This document shows positions 14,141 through 59,196 of a stretch of 61,724 bases of DNA, one piece after another. Numbering within the stretch: position 1 is the stretch's first letter; each line of letters begins with the position of its first letter. The DNA is taken from the NCBI GenBank assembly GCA_021802045.1, contig JAKABB010000005.1, positions 1 to 61,724 on the forward strand. The letters run 5' to 3'. The position numbers and the translations under genes were made by a program. The DNA is from a bacterium. Its GTDB lineage: Bacteria > Chloroflexota > Dormibacteria > Aeolococcales > Bog-877. Under the pieces are notes generated by a model. That model was not told the DNA's origin and did not search any database. It saw nothing but the letters and a program-made list of their open reading frames with translations.

Positions 14141-14199
14141 GGTGAGAAGACCTCCCGACGCACCACCCGGCAGCCCCCGGCGTGGGCGCGGGGCGCGGC

Positions 14200-14228
14200 T
14201 TGACCGCGACGCCCCCGTGCGCTAGCAT
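14200..14228 (+). promoter_or_regulatory. Sigma70-type promoter inside the IS, opposite to the transposase
   Basis: TTGACC-17 bp-TAGCAT. Confidence 0.6.
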
Positions 14229-21055: not shown

Positions 21056-21065
21056 GCACCGCCCT

Positions 21066-22975: not shown

Positions 22976-23386
22976 TTGCTGAACTCACCACCGCGCCGCC
23001 ATGTCCTGCCCCGGGCGCTGGCCGCCGTCCCGGACGGTGACCTGGCCGCTCCGTTCGAGAGCCTGGGGAACCCCACCCGCCTGCGCATCGTGGAGCGGCT
23101 GGCGGCCACCCGAGAGGTGAGGGTCTCGGACCTTGCGCTCCAGCTGGGCGTCAGCCAGCCACGGCTCTCGTGGCACCTGCGGCTCCTGCGCCGCAGCCGC
23201 ATCGTCACCACGCGCCGCGAGGGCCGCGAGGTCCTGTGCCGGCTCGATCGCGAAGCCATCCTCGACCATCTGGGCCGCTTCCGGGCGCTCATCGATGGTC
23301 GGCTGTCCATCGACCCCACCCCGTCTCCGGCCGCGGTGCTCGGGGTGCCCACGCGGGAGAACCCGCTGCCGGAGGTGTTGCCATGA
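22976..23386 (+). CDS. ArsR/SmtB-family regulator
   Basis: [31 protein letters not shown]. Confidence 0.9.
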
Positions 23387-24612: not shown

Positions 24613-24636
24613 CCCTATGGGCGCGACCCCGCCGCC

Positions 24637-25641: not shown

Positions 25642-26729
25642 GCGGCCAGTCCGCTCCCGGCCTTCGCCTGGTCCGCACCCGGCTGGCGGCCGCCCGCCGG
25701 CGCGTCCGGCCGGCGCCCGCCGCCGTCGCGACCTCCCCCGGGGAGTCCGTCCTGCCCTACCTTGGGCTGCGGGCCGCCGAGCTCGCCCTGCGCGGCCTCA
25801 GCCGGCGGGGCGCCTACCGGATGACCGGGCCCCTGGCCGCCGCCCTGACCCTCTGCTGGCCCGGCCACTGGGAGGGGCTGCGGGCCAACCTGGCGGTGGT
25901 GCGGCCGGAGCTGGACCGGCGCAGCCGGCGCCGGCTCCTGCGGGCCAACGTGGCCAACTTCCTCAAGGCCTGGATCGACGTCCTCCAGATGCCCCACCGG
26001 CCGATCGCGGACTGGCGGCCGTGGGTCACGGTGGAGGGGCTGGACCACCTGGAGGCGGCGCGGGCGGGCGGGCGCGGGGTGATCATGGTCAGCTGCCACC
26101 TGGGCGCCTGGGAGTCGGCCATCGTCTCGCTGCGGGATCACTTTCCCGAGCTGGCCCTGCTGGCGGAGCGGGTCCGGCCCATCCGCTGCTTCAACTGGCT
26201 GCGGCGCACCCGCATGCGCTCCGGCTGCCAGGTCATCCCGCTGGACGTGGACGCCACCCGGCGCGGGGACCTGGCCGCCGCCCAGCGCTCCGGGGCGGCC
26301 GCGGTGCGCGACATCTACCGGGTGCTGCGGCGGGGCGGGGTGGTGGTGATGGCCATCGACCGTGACCTGCTCGGGACCGGGGTGCCGATGCCCTTCTTCG
26401 GCCACCGGGTCTCGGTCCCGCTGGGAGCGGCCACCATCGCCGCCCGCACCGGAGCGGCGCTGCTCCCGGTGGTGGTGCTGCGGCAGCCGGACGACAGCTA
26501 CCTGGCCCGCGGCTACCCCCCGGTCTGGATCCCGCCCACGGGCCCCGACCCGGCCGCCGCCGACCAGGCGGCGCGGACCGCCAGCGGGGAGCTGCTGCGG
26601 TCGATGGAGCCGCTGCTGCGCCACCACGCCGACCAGTGGCATGTGCTCAGCCCGCTCTTCGGGCCGCCGATGGAGGCGGGGCCCCCGGCCCGGGCCCCGC
26701 GCTCGCCCGCGGAGGAGCGGGCATGCTGA
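25638..26729 (+). CDS. PatA/LpxL-like lipid acyltransferase (copy 2)
   Basis: HLGAWE, IDRDL..GVPMPFFG, DQWH. Confidence 0.85.
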   Translation: MSGQSAPGLRLVRTRLAAARRRVRPAPAAVATSPGESVLPYLGLRAAELALRGLSRRGAYRMTGPLAAALTLCWPGHWEGLRANLAVVRPELDRRSRRRLLRANVANFLKAWIDVLQMPHRPIADWRPWVTVEGLDHLEAARAGGRGVIMVSCHLGAWESAIVSLRDHFPELALLAERVRPIRCFNWLRRTRMRSGCQVIPLDVDATRRGDLAAAQRSGAAAVRDIYRVLRRGGVVVMAIDRDLLGTGVPMPFFGHRVSVPLGAATIAARTGAALLPVVVLRQPDDSYLARGYPPVWIPPTGPDPAAADQAARTASGELLRSMEPLLRHHADQWHVLSPLFGPPMEAGPPARAPRSPAEERAC

Positions 26730-27901
26730 AGGTGGGTCTGGTCTCCGCGTACGATGCCACCCGGCCGGGCGGCGTCGGCGAGCACGTCCGTCACCTCGCC
26801 GAGGAGCTGCGGGCGCGCGGCCACGGGGTTCGGATCCTGGCGCCCGCCTCCGACAGCGAGCACGCCGCCGCCATCGAAGGCCTGGTGCCGCTGGGGCGGG
26901 CCCTGCCGGTCCCGGCCAACGGCTCCATCGCCCGGATCTCCCTGAGCTTCCACCTCGCCCGCCGCATCCGCCGGACGCTGGACCAGGAGCGCTTCGACGT
27001 CCTGCACTTCCACGAGCCGCTGATGCCGGCGCTGCCAGTGACCGCGCTGCGCCTCAACCGCCACGGGGTCAATGTCGGCACCTTCCACGCCTACGCGCGC
27101 CAGAACCTGGGCTACTACTACGGCCGGCCGATCCTGCGCCGCCTCTTCCGCCGTCTCGATGCCTGCATCGCGGTCTCCGAGCCCGCCCGCACCTTCGTCA
27201 ACCGCTACTTCCCGGCCGACTACCACGTGATCCCCAACGGGGTCGACGTGTCCCGCTTCCGCCCCGGCCTGGAGCCCGCGGCCGACGTGCGCCGGGCCGG
27301 CCGACAGACGCTGCTGTTCGTGGGCCGGCTGGAGGATCGAAAAGGGCTGGCCACCCTCCTGGAGGCCTACGGGCTGCTCCGGCAGGTGCGGACCGACTGC
27401 CAGCTGGTGGTGGTCGGCGACGGCCCGCTGCGGCTGGGCTACGAGCGCTGGGTGGAGGAGGAGGGGATCCCCGACGTCCGCTTCCTGGGCTACGTGCCCG
27501 AGGCGGCCAAGCCGGCCACCTTCGCCGCCGCCGACATCTTCTGCGCCCCCAACTACGGCAAGGAGTCGTTCGGCATCATCCTCCTGGAGGCGATGGCCAG
27601 CGGCCGGCCGGTGGTGGCCACCGCCATCGACGGCTTCCGCCAGGTGATGCGCGACGGCCAGGAGGGCCGGCTGGTGCCGCCGCACGATGCCGGTGCCCTG
27701 GCCGGGGCGCTGCGCGAGCTCCTCGACGACGCGGCCGCCCGGCAGCGGATGGGCGCCGCCGGCCACCGGACGGCCCAGCAGTACCGCTGGGCGCGGGTGA
27801 CAGACCAGGTCCTTGGGGTCTACGCCGCCGCCCGCGCGGCCGCCGCCCCCCCCTCACAGGTGTCCTCCCTTGTTCAGCAGCCGGCTCCAGAGCTTCGTTA
27901 G
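26723..27901 (+). CDS. pimA: GT4 glycosyltransferase, phosphatidylinositol mannosyltransferase PimA-like
   Basis: PGGVGEHV, VPANGSIARI, DVLHFHEP, GTFH, ESFGIILLEAMA; inositol-lipid operon context. Confidence 0.8.
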   Translation: MLKVGLVSAYDATRPGGVGEHVRHLAEELRARGHGVRILAPASDSEHAAAIEGLVPLGRALPVPANGSIARISLSFHLARRIRRTLDQERFDVLHFHEPLMPALPVTALRLNRHGVNVGTFHAYARQNLGYYYGRPILRRLFRRLDACIAVSEPARTFVNRYFPADYHVIPNGVDVSRFRPGLEPAADVRRAGRQTLLFVGRLEDRKGLATLLEAYGLLRQVRTDCQLVVVGDGPLRLGYERWVEEEGIPDVRFLGYVPEAAKPATFAAADIFCAPNYGKESFGIILLEAMASGRPVVATAIDGFRQVMRDGQEGRLVPPHDAGALAGALRELLDDAAARQRMGAAGHRTAQQYRWARVTDQVLGVYAAARAAAAPPSQVSSLVQQPAPELR

Positions 27902-28568
27902 GCGGGGCGCGGCGCGCCTCGCCGCCGCCCTCGGCTTCCTGCGCCTCAGCCCCAATGCGGTGACCCTGATCGGGCTCGGGGTCACGGTGGTGGGGGCGGT
28001 CCTGATCGCCCTCGACCAGCTGTGGCCGGCGGGGCTGGTCCTGCTGCTGGCGGGCTCCTTCGACATCCTCGACGGGGCGGTGGCCCGGGTGACCGGGAAG
28101 ATGCACCGCTACGGCGCCTTCCTGGACAGCACCGCCGACCGCTACGGCGAGGGGGTCACCTATCTCGGGCTGCTGTACCTCCTGCTGGTGCGGGACCACC
28201 GCCAGCTGGAACCGTTCCTGGTGGCGGCGGCGCTGGCCGGGTCGTTCCTGGTCAGCTACGTGCGGGCCCGCGCCCAGTCGCTGGGGTTCTCGTGCGACGG
28301 CGGCTGGTTCGCCCGCCCCGAGCGCATCGTCGTCACCGCCCTCGGGCTGCTCACCGGCCAGCTGACCATCATGCTCTGGGTGCTGGCGCTGGCCACCAAC
28401 CTCACCGCCGGGCAGCGCATCCGCGAGGTCTGGCAGCAGCACCGCGCCCAGCTCGCCGCCGAGAGCGCGGGGGGGGACGCCGCCGCGGAGGCCACCGCCG
28501 GCCGCGACCCGTCGTCGCCCACCGGGCGCTCGTCGCCGGCCTCGCTGGCTGAGCCTCGCGCCCTGTAG
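27870..28568 (+). CDS. pgsA: CDP-alcohol phosphatidyltransferase (phosphatidylinositol phosphate synthase-like)
   Basis: SPNAVT, DILDGAVAR..G.FLDSTADR, VSYVRARAQ, RPER. Confidence 0.88.
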   Translation: MFSSRLQSFVRRGAARLAAALGFLRLSPNAVTLIGLGVTVVGAVLIALDQLWPAGLVLLLAGSFDILDGAVARVTGKMHRYGAFLDSTADRYGEGVTYLGLLYLLLVRDHRQLEPFLVAAALAGSFLVSYVRARAQSLGFSCDGGWFARPERIVVTALGLLTGQLTIMLWVLALATNLTAGQRIREVWQQHRAQLAAESAGGDAAAEATAGRDPSSPTGRSSPASLAEPRAL

Positions 28569-46934: not shown

Positions 46935-48317
46935 TCATCCGCCCAGGGCGGGCGCGGAGTGCTTCCCGCGGCCCCCGGCCGGGGGCAGCGGTTCCGGCAC
47001 CGGGATCGGGTGGTGCAGTTCGAAGACCTCCTCGTCGAAGATCGCCCGGTCGCCCCCCTCCAGCTCGCGCTCGGACATGCGCAGGGGCACGAAGAGGGCG
47101 ATCAGCTTGAGGATGCCCCAGGTGGCCAGCCCGTCGTAGGCGGTGACCACCGCCAGGCCCAGCACCTGCACCAGGAGCTGGTGGGGGTTGCCGTACAGCA
47201 GCCCGCTGACGCTGGCCCCGGCGCTCCCGTGGGCCCCCAGGTAGACCAGCATGGCGGGGTTGGCGACGAGGCCCACCATCACCCCGCCGATCGCGCCCGC
47301 CAGGTAGTGGGTGTGGATCACGCCCAGGGTGTCGTCGGCCTTGCGGAAGGGCCAGACGCCGCTCATCCGGTTCATGGTGAACCAGGGCAGGGCGCTGCCC
47401 GCGACCCCGATCAGGATGGCCCCGAAGCCGTCGACGTACCCCGCCGCCGGGGTGATCGCCACCAGGCCGCAGATCATGCCGTTGATGGCCCCGACGATGG
47501 AGAGCTTGCGATTGAGGCCCATCTCCAGGAAGAACCAGGTGAGCATGGCCATGGCGGTGGCCAGGTTGGTGTTGAGCACGGCGGCGGCGGCATCGGCGTT
47601 GGCGAAGTAGGGGTCCCCGCCGTTGAAGCCGTTCCAGCCCAGCCAGAGGATGCCCGCGCCCATCACCGCCAGCAGCATGTTGTTGGGCTTGAAGTCGCGC
47701 TGGTCCTGGAGGGTGCGGGGCCCGACCACCAGCGCCGCCACGAAGCCGGAGATGCCGGCCGCGACGTGGATCACGTAGCCACCGCTGTAGTCGACGACCC
47801 CCAGCTGGGCCAGCCAGCCGCCGCCCCAGATGGTGAAGGCGTTGACGCTGTAGACCAGCAGCGACCAGAGGGGGACGAAGATCATCCAGGCCTTGAGGTT
47901 CATGCGCCCGAAGACCGCCCCGGCCAGGATGATCGGGGTGATGGCGGCGAAGACGAACTGGAAGTAGATGAGGGACGAGGCGGGCAGGCGGAAGGCGGGC
48001 ATCAGCCCCTTCAGGAGCGGGATGGCCGCCCGGCCCTCCTCCTGCAGGGCCCCCAGCACCGGCAGGGGTTGCCCCACCAGGTTGCCGATCCAGGGGTGGC
48101 CGAAGCCCATGCTGAACCCGGCCAGGACCCAGACCACCAGCACGGCGCCGAAGGCGTACAGGGCCATCATGGCCGAGCTCACCGCCCACTTCCGCTTGAC
48201 GACGCCCCCGTAGAGCACCGCCAGGCCCGGGATCGACATCAGGCCGACCAGGGTGGCGGCGGTCAGCTGCCAGGCGTTGTCGCCGGGACTGAGGTAGCTG
48301 GACGACGGGATGTACAT
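46935..48317 (-). CDS. amtB: Ammonium transporter
   Basis: FQFVFAAIT, DYSGGYVIH, LWLGWNGFNGG, GLVAITPAAG, DDTLGVIHTH. Confidence 0.96.
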   Translation of the reverse strand: MYIPSSSYLSPGDNAWQLTAATLVGLMSIPGLAVLYGGVVKRKWAVSSAMMALYAFGAVLVVWVLAGFSMGFGHPWIGNLVGQPLPVLGALQEEGRAAIPLLKGLMPAFRLPASSLIYFQFVFAAITPIILAGAVFGRMNLKAWMIFVPLWSLLVYSVNAFTIWGGGWLAQLGVVDYSGGYVIHVAAGISGFVAALVVGPRTLQDQRDFKPNNMLLAVMGAGILWLGWNGFNGGDPYFANADAAAAVLNTNLATAMAMLTWFFLEMGLNRKLSIVGAINGMICGLVAITPAAGYVDGFGAILIGVAGSALPWFTMNRMSGVWPFRKADDTLGVIHTHYLAGAIGGVMVGLVANPAMLVYLGAHGSAGASVSGLLYGNPHQLLVQVLGLAVVTAYDGLATWGILKLIALFVPLRMSERELEGGDRAIFDEEVFELHHPIPVPEPLPPAGGRGKHSAPALGG

Positions 48318-48729
48318 CGTGCAGGAACTCCCAAAGGCTCACGGGGCACGGGGCCCTGTCCGTGCCGGTCGCCTTCCGACTCTGGGAGCGCGGGCGCCTC
48401 AGGTCATGGTGGGGTGGGCATGAATCCCCGGCCTGGAATCTGTGTGCCCGGCCCAAGGCCTGGCCCGGGCGCAGTTCCAGGCCACGGGCGCTGCCGGCCC
48501 GCTGCGGCGACCGGCCGTAGCGTGCCCGCAGCGCTCCATGCACGCTCCTCGTTTCGGGTCACGGCCTGGGTCGAGTCCCCGCGCTGGTCGCCGGTGACGT
48601 CGCGAGCCAAACCCGTCATCGACCGTCGCGGGCCCGCCCGCCCCGCCGCCAGCGTCCAGCCCGTCACCGTCACGGCCCGGGCGGCCGACGACGGGGCGGT
48701 GGCCCGGTGGCGAGAGCGGCGGAGTCCGG

Positions 48730-48761
48730 TTCATCCGGGGTTCACCCCGCCTCTCCAGTGT
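48730..48761 (+). promoter_or_regulatory. Candidate response-regulator box before murE
   Basis: TTCAT-CCGGGG-TTCAC, 10 nt, then -10-like CAGTGT. Confidence 0.6.
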
Positions 48762-48780
48762 TGCCGGTCGGAGGTGACCG

Positions 48781-50322
48781 ATGGCGACCCCTGGACGTGT
48801 CGATCTGCTCGACCCTCAACCCTGGGACCGGCTGGCACGGTGCGTGGCCGGTCTGGGCGGGCACTGCCCCACGGCAGGCCCCCCCCTCACGGGACTGGCC
48901 TGGGACTCGCGGGCCGTCCAGCCGGGGGACCTCTTCGTGGCCGTCCGGGGGCAGGTGCATGACGGACATGACCACCTCGCGGAGGCCGTGCGGGCCGGAA
49001 GCCGTGCCCTGGTGGTCGAGCCGCCGCCGGTTCCGATGGCTCCGTGCGCGGTGGTGGCCGACAGCCGGCGCGCCCTCGGGGCCATCTCCGCGGCCCTCTT
49101 CGGTGAGCCGGGACGGCGGATGCGGTTGGTCGGGGTCACGGGGACGGATGGCAAGACGACGACCACGCACCTGACCGCGGCGGTGCTGTCGGAGCTCGGT
49201 CTCAAGACCTGCGCGCTCAGCACGGTGGCATTGCTGGGCGGGGAAGGGACCTCCCGCCGGAACCAGACCGACATGACGACACCTGAGGCTCCGGTCCTGC
49301 ACCGGTTCCTGGCCGAACAGCTGCGGCAGGGCGTCCGCGCGGGCGTCCTCGAGGTGACGTCCCACGCCCTGGTGCAGCAGCGAGTCGACCAGTGCCCGTT
49401 CGAGGTGGCCGTCGTCACCAACTTCACCCCCGAACACCTGGACTTCCACGGCTCGCTCGAGGAGTACGCGCGGGCCAAGCTCCATCTTCTCGACCTGTTG
49501 GGGGGAACGCTGGTGACGCATGCCGACGACCCCGAGCTCGACCGGTTCCGACGGGCGTGGCCGGGTCGTCACCTCGGCTTCGGCGCCAAGGCAGGCGATG
49601 TCCGCGCCGGCGGTCTGGAGGGGTCGCGGGATGGGACCAGCTTTCGTCTGGTGTTCGGAGGAGACCGGGCGCGAGTTCAGCTGCGGCTGGCCGGCGGGCA
49701 CAACGTCCTCAACGCGATGGCGGCCGCCTCCGTCGGCCTGGCCCTGGGGGGTCGCGCCAAGGAGGTGGCGGTGGGACTGGGTCGGATCCCCTGCGTGGTC
49801 GGACGGCTGCAGAGGGTCGCGCGCGGCCAGCCCTTCGAGTTCTATGTCGACTTCGCGCACACCGTCAGGGGGCTGGAAGAGGTGCTGCGCACCCTCCGCC
49901 CCTGGACGACGGGGCGGCTGGTGGTCGTCTTCGGGAGCGCGGGTGGCCGGGACGCGCTGAAGCGCCCAGGGCTGGGAGGAGCCGCCGCCCGCCTGGCGGA
50001 CCACGCCATCCTCACCACGGACGATCCCCGCCACGAGGACCCCGCTGTGATCGCCGCCGAGATCTCCGCCGGCATGGAGGCCGAGGGGTGGCGGCGCGAC
50101 GACCAATTCGAGGTGATCCTCGATCGAGCCGCCGCCGTCCGGAGCGCCATCGCCACCGCCGGTCCGGGCGACACGGTGCTGCTGGCCGGCAAGGGCGGGC
50201 AGACCACGATGTACCTCCAGGGGAGCGGCATTCCCTGGGACGACGTGGCGCTCACCGAGGCGGCGCTGGCGGCGGCCGGGTATGCGGCGCCAGCCCCGCG
50301 CGAGCTCTCGTGCCCGGCGTGA
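48781..50322 (+). CDS. murE: MurE-family UDP-MurNAc-dipeptide amino acid ligase (variant)
   Basis: VTGTDGKTTT, TTPE, EVTSHAL, EHLDFHG, VDFAHT, DDPR; GGAGGT RBS. Confidence 0.92.
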   Translation: MATPGRVDLLDPQPWDRLARCVAGLGGHCPTAGPPLTGLAWDSRAVQPGDLFVAVRGQVHDGHDHLAEAVRAGSRALVVEPPPVPMAPCAVVADSRRALGAISAALFGEPGRRMRLVGVTGTDGKTTTTHLTAAVLSELGLKTCALSTVALLGGEGTSRRNQTDMTTPEAPVLHRFLAEQLRQGVRAGVLEVTSHALVQQRVDQCPFEVAVVTNFTPEHLDFHGSLEEYARAKLHLLDLLGGTLVTHADDPELDRFRRAWPGRHLGFGAKAGDVRAGGLEGSRDGTSFRLVFGGDRARVQLRLAGGHNVLNAMAAASVGLALGGRAKEVAVGLGRIPCVVGRLQRVARGQPFEFYVDFAHTVRGLEEVLRTLRPWTTGRLVVVFGSAGGRDALKRPGLGGAAARLADHAILTTDDPRHEDPAVIAAEISAGMEAEGWRRDDQFEVILDRAAAVRSAIATAGPGDTVLLAGKGGQTTMYLQGSGIPWDDVALTEAALAAAGYAAPAPRELSCPA

Positions 50323-50402
50323 GGCCCGGACCGGCGCACGGGCTGGGCCCGCCGCCGGCGGACGCAGCGCCCCTGGCGCGATAGCGGGGCTCCGCCATTC
50401 TG

Positions 50403-52169
50403 TTGAGGCTGGTCCCTGCCCGGGCCAGGATGCCCCTGGCCCGGGCAGGGACCAGCGGGCGCCGTCTCCTGGGCTGGCTCCTGACGCCGGGGAGTCCGGA
50501 GGCGGCTGCGTGCCAGAGGTCGGGGTCGCGGAGTACCCGGCGGCGCGAGCGCATCACCGTGGTCATCGGGGCAGCCGCGCTGGCGGCGGTCGCGGTCAGA
50601 GTCGCGGCGCAGCTGCAATCCGGATTCCTGACCGGGCTGTGGCAGTACGACGACGCTGTGTACCTCGGGGCGGCGCTGCGCATCGTCCACGGCGTGCAGC
50701 CCTACCACGGGGCCTTCGTGCTCATGGGGCCGCCCGGCGCGCCCCTTCTGCTGACCCCTCTGGCCGAGCTCGCGCGAGTGGTGGGGACGCAGAGGGCGTT
50801 GGTGGTCGCGCGACTCGCCATGCCGCTGGTGGCGGGGGCAAATGTCGTGCTCCTGGGGCTGCTGCTGCGACACCGTGCGCCCCTGGTGGCGGCTGTGGCC
50901 TGTTTCGCGCTGGCGCTGTACCCCGACGGGATCCTGACCACCTTGACCGTCATGCTGGAACCCCCGCTCGAGTTCTTCTGCCTGCTGGGGGCCGTCATTC
51001 TCTTCGATGGGGACGATCTCGCGCGGTCCCGGCGGCGTGTTCTGCTCGCCGGGGTCACCTTCGGCGTGGCCGGGACGGTGAAGGCGTGGGCCATCCTCCC
51101 CGTGGTCGTGATCGTCGTGCTGTGCCTTCCCCGGCGGCGTCAGCGCCTGATCCCCTTCAGTGCCGGGGTGGCCGGGGGGTTTCTCGCGATCTGCGGACCC
51201 TTCTTGGTCGCGACCCCGGTGGCATTCATGCAGCAGGTGGTCTTCGCCCAACTCGGCCGACGTGGACCGAGCCGGGCCTCGGCCGCGGTCCGGCTGGAGT
51301 TTCTCTCCGGCCTGTGGGCGGGCCTCCGGACGGGCGCGCAGACCCCCCAGCTTCTGCTGCTGACCGGGGCCGTGTGCACGGCGACCCTCATCACCGTGGG
51401 GGCGGTCTTCGCCGCCGCCCACCGTCCAGTCGATGCGGCCCCACGAGTGGGAGATGGGCCGCCGAGAGCAGGGACGTCGCCGCTGGAGCGCTTCGCTCTG
51501 GGCGCGGCCGGGGTGGTCCTGGCGGGCCTGCTGTGGCCGCCCGAGTTCTGGTACCACTACCCCGCCTTCTTCGGGCCCTTCTTGGCGCTGGTGCTGGGTC
51601 TGACGGCGGGCCGCGCCGCAGCGGCACGGCCCTTCCCGGTCCTCGCCACCATCGCCGTGGTGCTGGCGGCCGCGGCCTATCACGCGGCGGCGATTCCTTG
51701 GTCGCTGCCGACCCTCCGCAACCCCGCCGCCCAGATCGCGGCCGTGGACGCCCTCGTTCCGGCCGGTGCCTGCGTGGTGACCAACAATCCCGAGTTCACC
51801 ATCGGGGTTGATCGCTACACCGCGAGCTCGGCCCGCTGTCCGCAGATCGTCGATCCCCTCGCCACCACGACGGTGCTCTCCGGCGACCGCTCCACCCCCA
51901 GGGGGGACGCCAGGGCGGCGAGTGCATGGCTGCGCTACTTCCACCGAGCCCAGTACCTGATGCTCTCCACCGGCAGCCACGCCCGCGTCCTGTGGAGCCC
52001 CGCGTTGACGCGCTACGTGCACCAGCATTTCGTGCTGGTCTCCAGGACCCCGTGGCTGATCCTGAAGCACGTGAGCTCAAGCCCCCTCCGTCCACCGAGT
52101 GGCGCACCCCGCCTGCCCCGAAAGGTCGCGAGCAGGGGCCGGCGTCCGGGCAGCGGCTCCGTGACCTGA
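50403..52169 (+). CDS. GT-C fold membrane glycosyltransferase (ArnT/PMT-like)
   Basis: YDDAVY after TM1, PY..F..PPG, many TM segments, extracellular C-terminal domain; start uncertain. Confidence 0.75.
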   Translation: MRLVPARARMPLARAGTSGRRLLGWLLTPGSPEAAACQRSGSRSTRRRERITVVIGAAALAAVAVRVAAQLQSGFLTGLWQYDDAVYLGAALRIVHGVQPYHGAFVLMGPPGAPLLLTPLAELARVVGTQRALVVARLAMPLVAGANVVLLGLLLRHRAPLVAAVACFALALYPDGILTTLTVMLEPPLEFFCLLGAVILFDGDDLARSRRRVLLAGVTFGVAGTVKAWAILPVVVIVVLCLPRRRQRLIPFSAGVAGGFLAICGPFLVATPVAFMQQVVFAQLGRRGPSRASAAVRLEFLSGLWAGLRTGAQTPQLLLLTGAVCTATLITVGAVFAAAHRPVDAAPRVGDGPPRAGTSPLERFALGAAGVVLAGLLWPPEFWYHYPAFFGPFLALVLGLTAGRAAAARPFPVLATIAVVLAAAAYHAAAIPWSLPTLRNPAAQIAAVDALVPAGACVVTNNPEFTIGVDRYTASSARCPQIVDPLATTTVLSGDRSTPRGDARAASAWLRYFHRAQYLMLSTGSHARVLWSPALTRYVHQHFVLVSRTPWLILKHVSSSPLRPPSGAPRLPRKVASRGRRPGSGSVT

Positions 52170-52351
52170 CGCCCCGGGCACCGCCCGAGGCGGTCGGAGA
52201 CCAGGGCCCGCGCCCGGGGGGGCGGAGGCGGCCCGCAGGAGAGGGAGGGCAGGGCCCGCCGCTGCCCCTGGGTGGCCGGCGGCTGTCTGGGACGGGAGGA
52301 CAGCATGTCAGAGGACCGTGAGAGACAGTGGGGGACGCCCACAGCACTCCG

Positions 52352-53779
52352 TCACGTGGGCGGCCAGCGGTTGGCCGCGACCGCGCTCCGTTGGGGTGCC
52401 GGCTGGCTCGGTGGAGGGCCTCCGGAGGCTGGAGAGTGAGGTGAGCACCCCTCCACGCGCTGTGCCATCGCCGCCGGGGCTCCGAGATTCCGGGCGTCGC
52501 GGCGGCGGTGCCCACCCCGTCGACTCACCGCGAACAGCACCAGGGCCAGCACCATCAGGCTGGTCAACGGCGCAGCGGTTCCGCCGCGCACCGGGATGCG
52601 CGGGAAGACCACGGGAACCAGAAGCAGTGCGCTCACGATCACCCAGGGCAGGGGCCGCCGCAACTCGACCCCATCAGGCCCCAGGGTGAGGATGAGCAGG
52701 GGAAGCAGGACCACGAGGTCGTACGGGTGGACGTAGGGGCAGACCAGCAGCCAGATCGCGAGCGGCAGGAGCAGGCCCCCTCCGGCGCGTTCGGCTCGCG
52801 CCCGGTCTGTGTCCCCCGCCCGCACGGGCTCACTCACGACGCGGACCATCGCGGCCAGTCCCGCGCCGACCAGGCCGAGAGTGGTGAGGCTGGCCGGCCC
52901 GGCACTGGGGTGCCATGAGGCGGGCAGCAGATGCACCAACCCCGGGAGCCCGACCAGTGCCAGCTGACCCTGGCCAATCCCGTGTGAGAAGTGAAGCGCC
53001 AGCTGGAGCCAGGCCCGCGTCCTCCCCGGGTCGAGGATCGACGGTCCGCCCAGCAGGACCGCCACGGCGATCGCCTGGCCGGCGAGGACGGATCGCAGCG
53101 ACCCGCGCTCCCGGACCGCGAAGATCCACAGCAGCGGCGCCAGCGGGAGGGCCACCTGGGGCTTGAGCAGGGCCGCGGCTATCGACGCCAGGCCCGCCGC
53201 GGTCCAGTGGCCACGGCCGGCGGCGACGGCGGTGGCGACCAGTAGGGCCACCACCATGGCGTCGAACTGCCCCACCTGATAGCCGAGACAGGCGGTCGTC
53301 GAGACCGAGGCCAGGATGGCGACGGGCCAGGCCCGGCGCCATCCGAGGTTCCGGGCCCAGACCCGGGCCGCTCCCAGGACCAACGACCAGCTCAGCACTT
53401 CCCACAGGACGAGGGCCGGGGTGTAGGGAAGCAGGCTCCAGGGCGTCATGATCCACCCGACCCAGGGCAGGTACGGGAAGGCGCCGAGGGTCTGGCCAGC
53501 GCCGGCTCCGATGGCCGCGACCGAGGCCCGGGCGAGGGAACGCCCCTGGTAGGGATCGAGGCCATGGCGAAGGGCCCAGCCGGCCGCGTAGAAGATGCGG
53601 AAGTCGATGCCCCGCAGCGCGTCTGGGGTCACCAGCATCGCGCCCAGGATGAGCAGGCTGACGCCGAGGCTGAGAACCGCCAGGGCCACGGCCCCGGCGG
53701 TCACGCAGAGCGCGCCACGACCGCTGGAGGTGCGGGCCGGCAACGCCTCTGCGGTGGGGGGGAGCGCCTGCTCAGCCAT
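52352..53779 (-). CDS. GT87 (DUF2029) membrane glycosyltransferase
   Basis: IDFRIFYAAG..GLDPY, FPYLP, GQFD, LLKPQ, HPYDL. Confidence 0.82.
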   Translation of the reverse strand: MAEQALPPTAEALPARTSSGRGALCVTAGAVALAVLSLGVSLLILGAMLVTPDALRGIDFRIFYAAGWALRHGLDPYQGRSLARASVAAIGAGAGQTLGAFPYLPWVGWIMTPWSLLPYTPALVLWEVLSWSLVLGAARVWARNLGWRRAWPVAILASVSTTACLGYQVGQFDAMVVALLVATAVAAGRGHWTAAGLASIAAALLKPQVALPLAPLLWIFAVRERGSLRSVLAGQAIAVAVLLGGPSILDPGRTRAWLQLALHFSHGIGQGQLALVGLPGLVHLLPASWHPSAGPASLTTLGLVGAGLAAMVRVVSEPVRAGDTDRARAERAGGGLLLPLAIWLLVCPYVHPYDLVVLLPLLILTLGPDGVELRRPLPWVIVSALLLVPVVFPRIPVRGGTAAPLTSLMVLALVLFAVSRRGGHRRRDARNLGAPAAMAQRVEGCSPHSPASGGPPPSQPAPQRSAVAANRWPPT

Positions 53780-54323
53780 GGGCCGACGCGTCCCGCGTGT
53801 CCTGGCGGCACTCCCGGCGGAGGCGTTGGTGCAGGGTCGCGGTGGCCTGGACCACGAGCAGCCGGGCCGCCTCTTCACTGGTGTCCAGGATGGCGGCGAT
53901 CGCCGCCATCCTGAGGCCCGCGCCGAACTTCAGGGTCAGGGCGACGCGCGGTTGGTCAGGCAGTGACTCGACGAGGATCCGGATGTCGCTGGCGCCAATC
54001 CGCTGAGTCCCCTCGCCCCCTTCGGTGGGGAGGGCGCCGACCAGCTCGGGCGCGTCGTCCCACCCGCTCTCGGCCCGTCCCCAGGACCGGCTGTGGTCGG
54101 CGATCGTCTGGACCGCGATCCGGTAGAGCCGGACCGAGGGGGACTGGTCCACACGACGGTCACGCCCCATTGACCGCAGGGCCGTGAAGAAGACCTCGCC
54201 AGTGAGGTCCTGGGCCAGCTGCTGGTTGCCGACCCTGAGGGCAATGTATCGGTGTATCTGCGGGAAGTACTGGTCATAGAGTTCGCCAAACCTCTTCGGA
54301 CTCCGGCTGGCTCTCGCGATCAG
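53772..54323 (-). CDS. Divergent ECF sigma-70 factor
   Basis: Frame continues upstream of the track ORF: FGELYDQYFPQIHRYI..AQDLTGEVFFTAL (region 2) and LPDQPRVALTLKF (region 4); only a CTG start available, preceded by GGAGG. Confidence 0.75.
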   Translation of the reverse strand: MIARASRSPKRFGELYDQYFPQIHRYIALRVGNQQLAQDLTGEVFFTALRSMGRDRRVDQSPSVRLYRIAVQTIADHSRSWGRAESGWDDAPELVGALPTEGGEGTQRIGASDIRILVESLPDQPRVALTLKFGAGLRMAAIAAILDTSEEAARLLVVQATATLHQRLRRECRQDTRDASAHG

Positions 54324-54452
54324 AGCGCCCTCCCCGTGGTCGGTGGAGCGGGTGACTGCGGGTCAGCCGCGGCGGCGCGTCGACGGTTGGGGGTCGGACC
54401 CGGGGAGTGTGAGGGGATGGCTCGCGCCATCCCCTCACGGCCGCGAGCGCGG

Positions 54453-54725
54453 TCAGGCGCCAGCGGGCGATGAGGCCGTGGACTCGGCGCCGTCCGGCCC
54501 GCCCTGCTGCAGGTTGGCGCCGCTCTGCAGGTTGGCGCCGCTCTGCAGGTTGGCGCCGCCCGCCACCGTGGCGCCGGTGCTCAAGGTGCCCGTAGTCACA
54601 GTGACCGCGGGCGGCACGCGGGTCGTCGCCGATACCGGGATCACTCCACCACCGAAGGCGACTAGTCCGCCACCCGTGGCCAGCGCGCCAAGGCCGGTGA
54701 GCATTCTCTTTCGCAGGTCCATCAT
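54453..54725 (-). CDS. Small secreted protein (90 aa) with GANLQS repeats
   Basis: AGGAG RBS, RKR plus hydrophobic signal peptide, in-frame tandem repeats. Confidence 0.75.
   Translation of the reverse strand: MMDLRKRMLTGLGALATGGGLVAFGGGVIPVSATTRVPPAVTVTTGTLSTGATVAGGANLQSGANLQSGANLQQGGPDGAESTASSPAGA
54507..54559. repeat. 18-bp tandem repeat, three copies
   Basis: CTGCAGGTTGGCGCCGCT at 54507, 54525, 54543 (last base differs in the third). Confidence 0.95.
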
Positions 54726-54771
54726 GGTCGTTCTCCTGTTGTCTGGACCCCTACGCGGGATCCTGGAGTGC

Positions 54772-54803
54772 AAGCTAGCCGGCGCAAGTGAACCTCAGAT
54801 GAA
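54772..54803 (-). promoter_or_regulatory. Candidate response-regulator box before the small secreted protein
   Basis: Minus strand TTCAT-CTGAGG-TTCAC, 10 nt, TAGCTT. Confidence 0.65.
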
Positions 54804-54854
54804 GCACGGCAACGCCCCTTGGCGCGGCAGGGCTGTCACGGGCGGTGGGCCCGA

Positions 54855-56279
54855 CTAGCTCCCGGGCGCCGCGCGGGCTTGAGAGGGAGCGGCGCTCGGC
54901 GTGGTCGGAAGATGGACCACGAAGCGGGCACCGCGCGCTGAGGCCGCGAGCGCGATCCCGCCGCCGTGGGCGACGGCGATGGCGTGGCACAGGGAGAGGC
55001 CCAGACCAGCACCACCCTTGTGCGGCGTGCGAGCCGGATCGGCCCGTGCGAACCGCTCGAAGAGGTGGGGCCTGAGGGCGGGATCGACTCCGGGACCGGT
55101 GTCGTCGACCGTCAGGGTCCACCACGGTCCCTCCAGGGCCGACACGACCACGACGTGCCCACCGGATGGTGTGTGGCGCAGCGCGTTGTCGACGAGATTG
55201 TCGAGGCACCGGCGGAGGAGGTCGCGATCTCCCAGCATCACGCCCCCGGGACTCACATGCGCTCCCAGGTGGACGCCGTGCTGGGTGGCCAGGGGCTGCC
55301 AGCGGCTGACAACCTCCTCCACGAAGGCCCCGGGTTCGACGGGGAGCCGTTGCACGACCAGCGAGCCCGCGTCGGCGCGAGCGAGGAGCAGCAACTGCTC
55401 CGTCATCCGGCTGAGGTGCTCGATCTCTCCCAGCACCACCCGGTGGCTGGCACGGTAGTCCTCCGGGGTGCGATCGTGGCGCAGGGTGACCTCCAGCTGG
55501 GTGCGCATCAGCGTGAGCGGGGCGCGGAGTTCGTGCGCCGCGTCGGCGGTGAAGCGACGCAGCCCATCGAAGGCCGTCTCCAGTCGGGCCAGCATGGCGT
55601 CGAAGGTGGCCCCCAACTCACCCAGCTCGTCGCCGGGCGGCAGCTCCAGGCGGAGTCGTCGTCCCAGGTCGTGCTCGCTGATGTCCCGCGCGGTGGCCGC
55701 CATCACCCGCACCGGCCGGAGGGCGCGACCAGCCACCCAGTAGCCGAGCACGGCGTTGGAGACGATCAGCCCGACCACGATGGTGACCAGCAGGATCGCA
55801 GTCGTGGCGAGGGTCTGCTGGAGCTGGCCGATCGGCTGGGCCAGGACCAGCAGCGCCTGACCGCCCGCGACCGGCAGCACGAGGACCCGGTCAGAGCGGC
55901 CGGCCACGGGCAGGTTGAACGGAGTGCCCGGGGGCGGACCGGCGCGAGTCGCTCTGACCAGTGCGCTCGAGCCGGCTCCGTTGCCCGATTGGTCGATGAT
56001 CTTCCCCACGCGGCTCACCAGGAGCGCCGCGATGGCAATCCCGCGCTTGGTCTCGCCCGGCAGGGGGGTGTCACCGCGGAAGTTGACCTGCCCGTTGCCG
56101 ACATTGAGCCCGCCGGAGATCAGGCGGGCTTGCGCGGCGAGCCCGCTGTCCACGGCGGCGTACTCGAAGTGTGCAAAGGCCAGCCAGAAGGCCACCCCAG
56201 CCAGCCCAGCCATGGCCGCGAAGGCCGTGACGTAGGTGAGGGTTAGGCGGACGCGGGTGCGACGGAGCCGGTGACGCAC
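54855..56279 (-). CDS. Sensor histidine kinase (HAMP-HisKA-HATPase)
   Basis: Two TM helices, FTADAAHELRAPL, NLVDNALRH, DTGPG, FERF, GAGLGL. Confidence 0.96.
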   Translation of the reverse strand: MRHRLRRTRVRLTLTYVTAFAAMAGLAGVAFWLAFAHFEYAAVDSGLAAQARLISGGLNVGNGQVNFRGDTPLPGETKRGIAIAALLVSRVGKIIDQSGNGAGSSALVRATRAGPPPGTPFNLPVAGRSDRVLVLPVAGGQALLVLAQPIGQLQQTLATTAILLVTIVVGLIVSNAVLGYWVAGRALRPVRVMAATARDISEHDLGRRLRLELPPGDELGELGATFDAMLARLETAFDGLRRFTADAAHELRAPLTLMRTQLEVTLRHDRTPEDYRASHRVVLGEIEHLSRMTEQLLLLARADAGSLVVQRLPVEPGAFVEEVVSRWQPLATQHGVHLGAHVSPGGVMLGDRDLLRRCLDNLVDNALRHTPSGGHVVVVSALEGPWWTLTVDDTGPGVDPALRPHLFERFARADPARTPHKGGAGLGLSLCHAIAVAHGGGIALAASARGARFVVHLPTTPSAAPSQARAAPGS

Positions 56280-56956
56280 GACGGTTCAGGGTCGAAGCGG
56301 TAGCCCGCCCCGCGCAGGGTCGAGATCGGCTGGTGGCCGCCAGCGGCGACCAGCTTGCGGCGGAGGCGTCCCACGTACACGTCCACGAGATTGGATTGGC
56401 CCTGGAAGTCATAGTTCCAGACGTGCTCCTCGATCTGGGCTCGGCTCAGCACCTGTCGGGGATGGAGCATGAGATGTTCGAGGATGGCCAGCTCCTTGCT
56501 GGTCAGGCGCACAGGGCGGCCGGCCACCGTGAGCTCCCGGGCCGTGGTGTCGAGTTGCAGGAGGCCGGCGGTGAGGACCGCGGAGCGGTTGGCGAGGTGG
56601 CGCCGGGAGAGGGCGCGGAGGCGGGCCAGCAGTTCCTGGAAGGCGAAGGGCTTGGGCAGGTAGTCATCGGCACCGGCCTCCAGGCCCCGAACGCGATCCT
56701 CGACGGCGTCACGGGCAGTCAGCATGAGGACTGGGGCCCCGACCCGTCGGCGCCGGAGTTCGGCGCACAGCGCGAAGCCGTCCTGACGACCCGGAAGCAT
56801 GACGTCCAGGCTGATGACGTCAAAGGTGGTGGTCATGCAGGCCGCGACCGCCGTCTCGGCAGTGGTGACGACGTCGACCGCGCAGCCCTCCTCGGTCAGG
56901 CCTTGCCCCAGGACGGTCGCCAGCCTCAGGTCGTCTTCGACGAGGAGCACGCGCAC
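56243..56956 (-). CDS. OmpR-family response regulator
   Basis: LLVEDD, LDVMLPG, LTARD, GADDYLPKPF, SNLVDVYVGRLRRKL, TLRGAGY. Confidence 0.96.
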   Translation of the reverse strand: MRVLLVEDDLRLATVLGQGLTEEGCAVDVVTTAETAVAACMTTTFDVISLDVMLPGRQDGFALCAELRRRRVGAPVLMLTARDAVEDRVRGLEAGADDYLPKPFAFQELLARLRALSRRHLANRSAVLTAGLLQLDTTARELTVAGRPVRLTSKELAILEHLMLHPRQVLSRAQIEEHVWNYDFQGQSNLVDVYVGRLRRKLVAAGGHQPISTLRGAGYRFDPEPSCVTGSVAPASA

Positions 56957-56962
56957 GGCGGC

Positions 56963-56994
56963 ATTCTCCCACCCATTCATGACCCCTTCATGAA
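56963..56994 (-). promoter_or_regulatory. Candidate autoregulatory box of the response regulator
   Basis: Minus strand TTCAT-GAAGGG-GTCAT, 10 nt, GAGAAT, 6 nt, GTG start. Confidence 0.6.
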
Positions 56995-58269
56995 TGGGTG
57001 GGGTGGCCGGTGGCGGGGAGGGACGGTCATGGCAGTGAGCGCGCCGCGCCCGTCCGTCGCGAACCCGCACCGTCAGCCCGGGGGACCTGCCAGAACATCT
57101 CGAGGCCATGGTGAGGCGGCTGCGCCCTGCCGGGTCCCGGTGCAGGGTCCCCGTCACCGGACGAGGTCGGCGACTGCCCAACCGCCCGGCACCCGGCGGC
57201 TGCGCGCCATGCGAGCCAGTCAGGTGGCGTGACGTCCGTCCCGGCTCACCTCGCGGCCGATGATGGACCGTTGGTGACCTCCTGAGCAATCATGGTGCCA
57301 CCGACTTGGCGACCGCGACCGCCGGGGGCCTGGCGACCTCCGTGCCGTTCGTCCACGATCCCGTGGTCGGCGCCCAGGGGACGATCCTGAGGCGCCGCAT
57401 GCACCAGCACCAACGGTGGCCCGGCCCGGCGCCTGGCGGCGCGCCGGTCATCGTTCGCGGGCCCGCCCCGCACGGCACACCGTCCTGACACGCCGGTCAG
57501 GCCGCGCCCGGTCGGGTCGTCCCCGCGGGGCGGGGCAGCACGGCCCACGTTCACGGACCGCTGGTCGTGCATGACGGGCCGGCCCGGGTCGCGGCGCCGG
57601 GGCGCCGGTCCACCGGGTGTCACGCACCGCGCCAGGCCATGGTCGGTGGACGACGCGCCGCCGGTGATCAGGTCCGGGCGGCCGGGCACGGCCGTCGGCA
57701 CCGGGGGCCAGTGCGGATGCGTCAGCGTGGCTTCCGGTGTGCGGTGCTCTCGGCCTGGCCAGTGACAGGCGCGGCGCGTGGGGACGTGGCGCACCGGTCA
57801 TGGTCCGGCGCCGGCTCTTCCCGGTCCGGGAGCGGCAACGCGGGCCCCGTCAGCACCGATCCGGGCCTGGCAACCAGGTCCCACCAGCTCCGGCGTCGCG
57901 ACGGCCGCCCCGTCGCCGCCGGTGGGCGCTGGACCCCGGATCTGGCGAGCGGGGGGGTGGCGGGGCCGGCGACGCGGTCCGAGCGGCGCTGGGGCGGTCG
58001 TCGGCCTGGAGGCTGGGGGGAGCGGGCAGCGCGGGCCAGGGCCCCACGAGGTCAGGGCCCCCACAACGACCAACCGCCGCTCCGGGGAACCCGGAACGGC
58101 GGCGGTCCGCCGGCTTGGGGACCGGCGGCGCGGGGAGAGGAGGATGCGCCGGGCGGGTCATGTAATGGGAGGGCCATGCCCGCCGCGCACCAGCAGGCTA
58201 TAGCCGCCCCGCGCCGGCGGCCACAGCCGTTACAGGATCGTGGCAGGGCGTGGGGCGCCCAGCCGCCGG

Positions 58270-59196
58270 TCAGGCCGTGCCGGCGACCGCCGGGGGATTG
58301 GAGGCCGGGGCCTGGCGCTGCTGCACCACGGTGGCCACCCCGAGGAGGATCAGGGCCCCGCCGGCCAGGGTGGCGGCGGACGGCCGCTCGCCCCGGATCA
58401 GCACCGCCAGGGCGGTGCCCACCAGGGGCTGGATGAAGAGCAGCGGCGCCAGCCGGCCGGGCATCACCCGGCGCAGGCCGTAGAACCAGCCCCAGTAGCA
58501 CACGGCGGTGCTGATCACCCCGAGGTAGGCGGCCCCGACCCAGCCGCCGAGGCCGAGCCCGGGCCAGTGGTCGGCGGCCAGGGCCGCCAGCCCGGCCGGC
58601 CACCACACCAGCAGGCTGCCAGCCACCGCGGCCGCGGTCAGGAGCAGGGGCGGGTAGCGCTGCACCATCGAGGCGCCGACCAGGGTGAAGACGGCCTCGA
58701 TGCCCAGGGCGGCGACCACCAGGAGGTTGCCCAGGGCGACGGGGCCGGTGGCCCCCTGGGGCCATCCCAGCCCGCCGGCGACCACCAGGTCGACGCCGAC
58801 GGCCCCCGCCAGCAGGCCCAGGACCTCGAGGCGACGCAGGCGCTCGCCCAGGATCAGCACGCTCAGCAGCACCGTGGCCAGGGCCTCGGCGGCGATCAGG
58901 AGCGCGGTGTCGGTGGCCGTGGTCAGGCTGAGGCCCCAGTACTCCAGGGTCTTGTTGGCGACAAAGCCGATGGCGCACATGGCGACCAGGCGCCAGCGGT
59001 CGCCCCGGCCCCGCGGCAGGGCCCGCCGCTGGCGCCACAGCACCGGCGCCAACACCACGGTGGCGATGCTGAAGCGCAGCATGTTCAGGCTGGCGAAGGG
59101 CCAGGTGGCCAGCACCGCCTTGCCGGCCACGTAGGACCCGGCCCACAGGACGTTGCTGCCGGCCAGGACCAGGAGCGCGCGGTTCCGTCCCCCCAA
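58270..59196 (-). CDS. EamA/DMT family transporter
   Basis: LWAGSYVAGK, LILGERL, QPLVG..GERP; about 10 TM segments. Confidence 0.88.
   Translation of the reverse strand: MGGRNRALLVLAGSNVLWAGSYVAGKAVLATWPFASLNMLRFSIATVVLAPVLWRQRRALPRGRGDRWRLVAMCAIGFVANKTLEYWGLSLTTATDTALLIAAEALATVLLSVLILGERLRRLEVLGLLAGAVGVDLVVAGGLGWPQGATGPVALGNLLVVAALGIEAVFTLVGASMVQRYPPLLLTAAAVAGSLLVWWPAGLAALAADHWPGLGLGGWVGAAYLGVISTAVCYWGWFYGLRRVMPGRLAPLLFIQPLVGTALAVLIRGERPSAATLAGGALILLGVATVVQQRQAPASNPPAVAGTA

Follow-up and report, generated by a model that had tools for sequence, protein, structure and literature searches.

We report here on a gene cluster that occupies positions 48730-56994 of a 61,724-nucleotide stretch of DNA (the window), which is contig C166 of G000, a metagenome-assembled genome of 3.0 Mb and 86% completeness from an uncultured soil-type bacterium of the Dormibacteria lineage. 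The cluster joins a second copy of MurE, the Mur ligase that acts at position 3 of the peptidoglycan stem, to a two-component system, an extracytoplasmic function (ECF) sigma factor and membrane glycosyltransferases, and it is very probably a co-regulated, mobile envelope module under two-component control. On balance, we lean towards a more specific reading, in which this module is a small regulon of one two-component system that would provide a second UDP-MurNAc-tripeptide pool together with altered envelope glycosylation. Inducible changes to peptidoglycan precursors have been described mostly at the terminal D-Ala-D-Ala, in Van systems, and the third stem residue is treated as a fixed species trait; with a second MurE that is regulated and has an altered pocket, position 3 too would come under regulation. 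To our knowledge, Dormibacteria have no cultured members, and two enzymes, one regulator and three short operators would offer a simple, testable entry to the cell-wall biology of the lineage.

The plus strand of the cluster carries the genes for the accessory ligase, which we name MurE2, and for a GT-C glycosyltransferase, and the minus strand carries those for an OmpR-type response regulator, a histidine kinase, a 90-residue secreted repeat protein, an ECF sigma factor and a GT87 glycosyltransferase. Coding frames were chosen by third-position GC and named via Pfam and NCBIfam, which bore out every gene named in an initial annotation of this DNA, the GT-C enzyme by way of an AlphaFold model and Foldseek. 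The genes and promoter elements are the following.

48730-48745, plus strand: box 1 (TTCATCCGGGGTTCAC), at the -35 position of the murE2 promoter
48756-48761, plus strand: -10-like hexamer CAGTGT of murE2, 10 nucleotides past box 1
48770-48774, plus strand: GGAGG within the 19-nucleotide murE2 leader, before the ATG at 48781
48781-50322, plus strand: MurE-type ligase MurE2 (TIGR01085, 408.3 bits against a cut-off of 257.3, profile positions 4-471 of 472)
50403-52169, plus strand: GT-C membrane glycosyltransferase, 588 residues (Pfam PMT, 22.2 against 22.7, below cut-off)
52352-53779, minus strand: GT87-family (PimE-type) membrane glycosyltransferase (PF09594, 43.7 against 25 bits)
53772-54323, minus strand: ECF-type sigma factor (PF04542, 32.2 against 24; PF08281, 23.4 against 25.7, just under)
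54453-54725, minus strand: small secreted protein, 90 residues, with a signal-peptide-like N terminus, Thr/Gly-rich, with a GGPD motif
54803-54788, minus strand: box 2 (TTCATCTGAGGTTCAC), upstream of the small gene, then 10 nucleotides and -10-like TAGCTT at 54777-54772
54855-56279, minus strand: HAMP/HisKA/HATPase histidine kinase, with two membrane-spanning regions around an extracytoplasmic domain of ~100-120 residues
56243-56956, minus strand: OmpR/PhoB-family response regulator, 237 residues, GTG start
56994-56979, minus strand: box 3 (TTCATGAAGGGGTCAT), an inverted repeat too, then 10 nucleotides and -10-like GAGAAT at 56968-56963, with the GTG 6 nucleotides on

The first line of evidence for the module is the control region common to its three transcription units (the murE2 unit, the small-gene unit and the regulator-kinase unit). 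Upstream of all three lies a 16-nucleotide direct-repeat box, TTCAT-N6-(G/T)TCA(C/T), with two 5-nucleotide half-sites 11 nucleotides apart, and at each of the three promoters this box is followed by exactly 10 nucleotides and then by a hexamer whose second base is A and whose last base is T. This geometry is stronger evidence than pattern counts. The pattern TTCATNNNNGGKTCAY has three matches in the window against 0.01 expected, a number reached in 0 of 100 shuffles, and four in the whole genome, three of them in the cluster, but both sets of figures are inflated, as the pattern was written after the sites had been seen. A matrix built from 13 sites, the window's own three included, places the three cluster sites within the top 4 of 14 genome matches scoring at least 17. 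The fourth strict match in the genome (C93:70838-70853) lies inside or beside an integrase-like gene, and a high-scoring match at C152:1243-1258 on the minus strand (24.5, on a par with the cluster sites) sits on a 3.3-kb contig, where the sequence is richer in AT and no gene is evident downstream; both may be chance matches. At the regulator promoter, the hexamer ends 6 nucleotides before the GTG, a layout typical of leaderless mRNAs, and the promoter is therefore probably leaderless; its own box suggests that it is also autoregulated. A -10-like hexamer stands 6-7 nucleotides before the regulator start codon in the relatives G009, G008, G022 and G028 as it does in G000. Box and promoter geometry together make one of the few cis-regulatory predictions for the Dormibacteria lineage.

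The second line of evidence comes from G009, a genome of the same family and another genus, in which the genes for the regulator (75% identical to that of the window), kinase (72%), small protein (47%), sigma factor (44%) and GT87 enzyme (59%) again lie convergent with murE2 (71%). A looser form of the direct-repeat pattern has exactly three matches in 17.4 kb of this locus, one at each orthologous promoter, and each is followed after 10 nucleotides by a -10-like hexamer (AAATGT, TAGCCT and CACAAT). The murE2 gene, behind AAATGT, has the same 19-nucleotide leader with GGAGG as in the window, and the regulator ATG stands 7 nucleotides past its hexamer. Since the window pattern was defined post hoc, this footprint serves as an independent check on the box, and the proposals of the initial annotation that a shared box precedes each unit and that the units form one regulon are supported, with box, spacer and hexamer conserved at three promoters in two genera. 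In G009, the cluster is bordered at one end by sulfite reductase and siroheme synthase genes and at the other by those for a NAPRTase, an aldose epimerase and a DsbA-like protein, and the left flank in the window consists of amt and gltBD and the right flank of an EamA transporter and dxs (Pfam). Because the genomic context differs, the cluster has moved as a whole unit. The full cluster is shared with this single relative, and the co-occurrence that had been predicted for it extends to the regulator, kinase, small protein, sigma factor, GT87 enzyme and MurE2 and fails for the GT-C enzyme, in whose place, 3' of murE2, G009 has a gene for an unrelated secreted protein of 806 residues without a Pfam family.

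This ~800-residue protein is encoded at L078 7666-10086 (minus strand), L121 3053-5368 and L120 3922-6300, with ~50% identity among G009, G022 and G003, and it recurs beside the sensor pair and is absent from G000. The nearest protein language-model neighbours of the 806-residue protein are GH31/GH36 glycosidases (score 0.96), which we regard as a lead only.

The third line of evidence is MurE2 itself, an extra copy that is both intact and rare. It holds all three Mur ligase domains (PF01225, PF08245 and PF02875, each above the Pfam cut-off), including the UDP-binding N-domain, its closest solved relatives are all MurE enzymes, and the alignment shows an intact catalytic core, with the P-loop GTDGKTT, the TSHA and EHLDFHG motifs and the AK lysine. 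A second, housekeeping MurE, 46% identical to MurE2, is encoded at C164 and groups in the tree with the single MurE of relatives; the murE of the cluster is thus not the sole copy in the genome. The related expectation of a separate murE in the dcw cluster was right about the separate copy and wrong about its place, which is isolated among unrelated genes; the dcw contig C47 reads PBP-MraY-MurG-MurB (PBP, penicillin-binding protein), without murE or murF between PBP and MraY, and murF sits with ddl. For comparison, we surveyed the order (161 genomes), the class (374), the phylum (an even sample of 401) and the 41 nearest relatives; statements on G032 and G022 come from unpublished genomes, and four further unpublished genomes enter the tallies only. 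MurE was found in 40 of the 41 relatives, and a second, MurE2-type copy only in G000, G009 and G032; counts of genomes with MurE2-type genes are 3 of 161 in the order, 3 of 374 in the class and 2 in the 401-genome phylum sample. A search of genome contigs with MurE2 confirmed six loci, the one MurE2-type relative among them (71% identity) being the G009 contig. Among the scored matches from 5.8 billion proteins, the MurE2 clade comprises eight clusters of 53-100% identity, and the next identities are at most 48%. In a tree of 74 sequences (FastTree, midpoint root, no outgroup, which leaves the sister group of the clade unassigned), this clade is monophyletic (8/8, support 1.0, long stem of 0.57) and lies outside the clade of 28/28 housekeeping Dormibacteria enzymes. 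With 44-46% identity between clade and housekeeping copy, the MurE2 clade appears to be old.

The initial annotation had called the enzyme a murE variant, and the variation proves to be clade-specific and to affect two positions of the substrate pocket. At the DNPR-motif position, MurE2 has DDPR and the housekeeping copies have EDPR (28/28, loci L002 and L051-L077, of which L077 is from the unpublished genome G007), and at the GKGHE position, MurE2 has GKGGQ and the same 28/28 copies have GKGHE. DDPR and GKGGQ are found together in all three genome-read MurE2-type genes (G000, G009 and G032), as well as in all 7 full-length clade members and the partial P0010 of the protein search, and GKGGQ occurs in none of the ~110 other MurE matches listed. 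It is reported that meso-diaminopimelate (meso-DAP) is held at its distal carboxylate by the Asn and Arg of DNPR, that the epsilon-amino group is bound by the first Asp with Glu-468 in Escherichia coli or Glu-460 in Staphylococcus aureus, and that the E460A mutant of S. aureus MurE is almost inactive (PMC3829189). Judging from the alignment ranges and the alignment with Thermotoga maritima MurE, Q474 of MurE2 would be the counterpart of these Glu residues, so that the change to GKGGQ would cost MurE2 the Glu to which the third stem residue binds by its distal amine. MurE2 thus lacks the combination of DNPR motif and GKGHE Glu that marks meso-DAP-specific MurE enzymes. Negative charge in the pocket would be moved rather than lost (Asn to Asp, Glu to Gln), which would make a different diamino acid or stereoisomer a likelier substrate than a neutral residue. 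DapF and LysA were found in the genome, and LL-DAP, meso-DAP and L-Lys should therefore all be available; DapA was not found in this incomplete genome. Among the 120 MurE matches listed, DDPL (42) and EDPR (26) are the commonest forms and DNPR occurs once. The third stem residue of the Dormibacteria lineage may not be meso-DAP.

Taken together, these data suggest the following mechanism. The membrane kinase would phosphorylate the OmpR-family regulator upon a signal perceived by its extracytoplasmic sensor domain, and the regulator would bind TTCAT-N6-(G/T)TCA(C/T) in place of a -35 element. It would thereby activate, rather than repress, its own probably leaderless regulator-kinase operon, the strongly terminated small-protein gene with read-through into the ECF sigma and GT87 genes, and the accessory ligase gene with possible read-through into the GT-C gene. 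The outcome would be a second UDP-MurNAc-tripeptide pool in which the third residue or its stereochemistry is unlike that of the housekeeping pool, glycosylation of an envelope glycolipid or polymer would be altered alongside, and the sigma factor would widen the response. If the regulon is granted, we give an even chance to a change at stem-peptide position 3. The most far-reaching version, in which the kinase switches the third stem residue on demand by inducing a MurE2 that loads another diamino acid or stereoisomer, with the sigma cascade and the GT87 and GT-C enzymes re-decorating the envelope, is one that we put forward tentatively and as rather less probable than not. If true, such an on-demand switch would alter cross-link chemistry and recognition by lytic enzymes, antibiotics and phage endolysins.

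Several observations weigh against the regulon with a second tripeptide pool. Besides the post hoc origin of the box pattern, kinase and regulator occur without MurE2 in 33 genomes of the order, and the murE2 gene of G032, on an 8.8-kb contig, adjoins a polysaccharide deacetylase gene and has neither box nor sensor pair, no kinase orthologue being detected in that genome at E<=1e-70. The G009 cluster has an unrelated gene in place of the GT-C gene, which in the window is parted from murE2 by a very stable hairpin at 50408-50456 (-57.7 kcal/mol, z -6.2, unique in the genome). DDPR is not unique by itself, being found with GKGHE in four other MurE matches listed. MurE2 keeps the Arg of the DNPR-type motif and passes, if narrowly, the NCBIfam equivalog NF001126 for meso-DAP ligases (381 against 373 bits), and its substrate may for these two reasons be unchanged or only subtly different. 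Finally, all genomes behind the claim of two MurE copies are metagenome bins; since three bins show both copies and the housekeeping genes of the window contig are single-copy in the bin, we take both enzymes to be present in one cell.

The alternative that fares best accepts the same regulon and makes MurE2 an isozyme for the same substrate, which would be induced under envelope stress to raise precursor flux or bypass an inhibited or damaged housekeeping MurE and would leave the stem unchanged. Besides the NF001126 score, this would agree with the retention of both Asp and Arg in the DNPR-type motif, with a net pocket charge that the two substitutions leave as it was and with the availability of DAP suggested by DapF and LysA. 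It does not readily explain why both pocket changes are fixed in every clade member, GKGGQ being found in no other MurE listed, why the lost residue should be a Glu that is critical for substrate binding in S. aureus MurE (PMC3829189), or why an apparently old clade is just 44-46% identical to the housekeeping copy. We consider this isozyme unlikely.

Less likely still is that MurE2, in the manner of other Mur-ligase paralogues, adds an amino acid to another envelope polymer or a nucleotide-linked intermediate, working with the neighbouring glycosyltransferases or the glycosidase-like protein. The loss of the canonical GKGHE would fit this idea, as would the varying glycan-enzyme partners (GT-C here, the GH31/GH36-like protein in G009 and a polysaccharide deacetylase near the G032 copy). 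However, MurE2 matches the MurE subfamily over its full length, from position 4 to 471 of 472 with 408 bits, has all three Mur domains, the UDP-binding one included, and finds its closest solved relatives exclusively among MurE enzymes, all of which speaks against this reading.

The sensor pair is of much broader distribution than MurE2. The regulator belongs to the OmpR/PhoB family, with a receiver (PF00072, 91.5 bits) and a winged-helix Trans_reg_C domain (PF00486, 89.0 bits), and orthologues of the kinase, full-length and including the sensor domain, were found in 35 of 161 genomes of the order. Because kinase and regulator are present in 35/161 genomes, versus 3/161 for MurE2, the sensor system is not dedicated to MurE2; MurE2 is an occasional recruit of a pair that is far commoner in the order and has other neighbours there. 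In the 20 kinase loci that were fetched, the regulator gene is adjacent in 20/20, tblastn at E<=1e-4 found no match to the small-protein, sigma and MurE2 genes, and GT87 is represented by one weak paralogue, in G022 (34% identity, ~3 kb from the kinase). A small-protein homologue in G008 was missed by tblastn and found in the reading frame 3' of the kinase, so that these 20 loci are not strictly free of cluster genes. The description of the cluster as self-contained is only partly apt, since elsewhere the sensor pair is found with different partners.

The regulator genes of G008, G022 and G028 are likewise preceded by a box of this kind. A box is also found in G008 upstream of the small secreted protein homologue, at the contig end, in G022 upstream of the orthologue of the 806-residue protein, beside a polysaccharide deacetylase gene, and in G003 upstream of a gene for a ~510-560-residue protein with a weak beta-propeller match, whose homologue in G012 occupies the same place with no box found. 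The recurring neighbours of the sensor pair or MurE2 in relatives are thus the small secreted protein, the ~800-residue GH31/GH36-like protein, polysaccharide deacetylase and GT87. In the order's other family (L127 and L129), the gene 3' of the kinase encodes a ~210-residue protein with a lipoprotein-type signal (Cys past a hydrophobic stretch), reminiscent of CseA beside CseBC.

A very unlikely possibility is that this pair is a metal sensor of the CusRS/CopRS type that lies beside envelope genes without controlling them. In NCBIfam, the pair does match best to the heavy-metal kinase (TIGR01386, 262.9 against a cut-off of 292.55) and regulator (TIGR01387, 195 against 279.2) subfamilies, and the window DNA is present in four DNA runs, all from a single study, that carry the label mine drainage metagenome. 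Both scores nevertheless fall below cut-off, the kinase match covers residues 139-458 only, with the sensor domain outside, the extracytoplasmic sensor domain contains zero His, Met and Cys residues, and Pfam reveals no metal-resistance gene in the cluster. The presence of boxes before envelope genes in two genera likewise argues against unrelated neighbours. A metal or acid signal as such would fit the mine-drainage label, though the sequence lends it no support. As for a chance adjacency of unrelated genes with a coincidental box, which the post hoc pattern and the C93 and C152 matches without clear targets might suggest, it is largely refuted by the conservation of gene order, box, spacer and -10 geometry in G009 despite a different genomic context.

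The GT-C enzyme is a doubtful member of the regulon, and its operon membership is uncertain because a hairpin separates murE2 from its conserved body. Two hairpins were found in the cluster.

50408-50456, plus strand: perfect 22-bp hairpin with a 5-nucleotide loop, between murE2 and the conserved GT-C body, with the in-frame GT-C ATG at 50430 in the loop
54409-54438, minus strand: 13-bp hairpin just past the stop codon of the small gene, before the sigma gene (-37.9 kcal/mol, z -4.6)

Both are likely to be terminators or attenuators, and the GT-C start is uncertain (TTG at 50403, ATG at 50430 or GTG near 50559). The nature of the enzyme is clear from its AlphaFold model (pLDDT 82, pTM 0.85; 21 homologues aligned), with which Foldseek returned 19 PDB matches at E<=1e-3 and 30 best-ranked matches that are all GT-C enzymes, among them STT3, ArnT (TM 0.52-0.57), AftD, AftA, PglB, ALG9/12 and Pmt4, with PimE lower in the list. 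D83 in its YDDAVY sequence, an acidic motif in the first outer loop, is invariant in the 21 homologues, and the protein thus has the GT-C fold. A profile of these homologues gave no match at E<=1 to PDB sequences; 7 of the 21 match Pfam GT87 and 3 match PMT, and the protein itself has no GT87 match. The genome encodes two more GT-C paralogues (65% and 45% identity) and further GT87 paralogues.

On the minus strand, the small protein has three GANLQS/Q repeats (an 18-nucleotide tandem) and homologues 3' of the kinase in G009 and G008. In G009, a hairpin lies at the same place past the small gene with a different stem sequence, and this conservation of position without conservation of sequence suggests strong termination after the small gene, with partial read-through into the sigma and GT87 genes. 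The sigma factor is of the ECF type, its region 4 being covered by several NCBIfam ECF models, and no anti-sigma gene adjoins its gene, whose stop codon is overlapped by the GT87 start by 8 nucleotides. Neither in G000 (53772-54323) nor in G009 (L078 5665-6228) does this gene have an ATG, GTG or TTG before region 2. Because a strong Shine-Dalgarno followed by CTGATCGC is common to the sigma genes of both genomes, the conserved start is likely to be CTG at 54323 or ATC at 54320, behind GGGGAGGG.

Elsewhere in the window, on the plus strand at 23041-28568, genes for myo-inositol-1-phosphate synthase, a lipid-A-type acyltransferase (PF03279), a GT4 glycosyltransferase and a CDP-alcohol phosphatidyltransferase are consecutive. 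We take this set to resemble the mycobacterial operon for phosphatidylinositol and the early phosphatidylinositol mannosides, and it could plausibly supply the lipid substrate for the PimE-type GT87 enzymes of the genome.

Other Mur ligases were considered as well. Besides the ddl-linked MurF, a further copy with 57% identity to it is encoded near isocitrate dehydrogenase in the family's two holders of MurE2 (C77:84410-85699 in G000, C4:10422-12080 in G009); of the 44 genomes in the family, three (G000, G009 and G521) have two MurF genes. PF01225 was not detectable as an N-domain in either MurF-like protein, and the two share a conserved hydrophobic N-terminal extension of ~170 residues. The second MurF might act on an altered tripeptide, or it might be an artefact of binning. 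A partnership with MurE2 is a lead only: G032 has a single copy, G521 lacks MurE2 and shows 7% contamination, and the extra copy has no box in front of it.

The cluster is set off by non-coding sequence on both sides, as had been noted from the outset.

48318-48780: left gap, 463 bp
56957-58269: 1313-bp stretch on the 5' side of the regulator gene, nearly devoid of codon periodicity

The longer stretch gave no Rfam match and, apart from three chance-level matches of 38-47 nucleotides, no copy elsewhere in the genome or the fetched loci; it may be a decayed gene. An Rfam scan of 48000-58400 at E<=1 gave zero matches, and a scan for sigma-70 consensus gave no promoter-like sites and two terminator-like sites versus 1.4 expected. 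To the left, amt (46935-48317, minus strand) is inverted relative to gltB-gltD, the genes being co-directional in all 9 of 13 relatives' loci that show gltBD beside amt; here, at its left border, the cluster shows a local rearrangement. Horizontal transfer was considered and not adopted: the flanks differ between G000 and G009, but third-position GC of the cluster genes (0.82-0.87) falls in the 9th-25th percentile of 1095 long open reading frames, which is low without being an outlier, and no clean insertion site was found. The GC content of the window is ~72-78%, and in the protein search its closest named relatives are Candidatus Dormibacteria. Away from the cluster, the window also contains two DDE transposase genes (IS4/5-type and DDE_5) and a second ECF-type sigma gene, at 10290-11195 (plus strand), 12854-14221 (minus strand) and 20462-21064 (minus strand).

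Comparison with known systems helps to define what is familiar and what is different in this cluster. Its control region resembles class II activation by OmpR/PhoB-type regulators, in which the half-sites of PhoB/PhoP pho boxes, likewise 11 nucleotides apart, replace the -35 element at a fixed distance from the -10. The half-site GTTCA presumably resembles actinomycete PHO boxes, and the regulator scores below cut-off with both the PhoB and the PhoP models. For MurE2, the best single-domain solved relative is the L-/D-lysine-adding MurE of T. maritima (PDB 4BUB, E 4.4e-76), which has the same DDPR. The T. maritima enzyme keeps GRGHE where MurE2 has GKGGQ. We also take the T. maritima enzyme to be the sole MurE of its organism and not an inducible paralogue.

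The closest parallels in overall design are two systems of other phyla. In the van clusters of actinomycetes, an OmpR-family two-component system (VanRS) likewise lies beside, and presumably drives, enzymes that modify the peptidoglycan precursor (PMC4790382, PMC6767563), and in the teicoplanin cluster, a Mur ligase paralogue, murF2, adjoins vanHAX and the two-component system (PMC4790382), as the initial annotation had stated in general terms for van-type loci. The differences are that the cluster described here has no vanH, vanA or vanX and, by Pfam, no dehydrogenase, D-Ala-D-X ligase or D,D-dipeptidase, that murF2 is a MurF, acting at positions 4-5, and MurE acts at position 3, and that the host belongs to Dormibacteria and not to Actinomycetota or Bacillota. 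Scores with the VanR (136, cut-off 505) and VanS (118, cut-off 720) models are much too low and place the sensor pair outside VanRS. In CseBC-sigmaE of Streptomyces, the relevant part of PMC6767563 describes, likewise, two-component control of an ECF sigma factor without an anti-sigma factor, a small extracytoplasmic protein and an output of cell-envelope glycan genes, with more than 90% termination past sigE, the first gene of the operon. Here too there are differences, in gene order (sigE-cseA-cseB-cseC), in the small protein, which lacks a lipobox in the present cluster, and in the regulator, which apparently has three targets including a Mur ligase, the sigE promoter being apparently the only target of CseB. 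The CseB model (161 against 350), the SigE-family model (35.5 against 141.55) and the best sigma model, of BldN type (83 against 206), all place the cluster outside this system. Open-access full text yielded no description of a two-component-controlled MurE paralogue and, on Dormibacterota peptidoglycan, nothing beyond genome surveys. By analogy, the logic of this cluster would combine the two described designs, one VanRS-like and one CseBC-sigE-like. If the third stem residue is indeed switched on demand, the cluster would do at position 3 what the Van switch does at position 5, and this in a phylum-level lineage that is uncultured.

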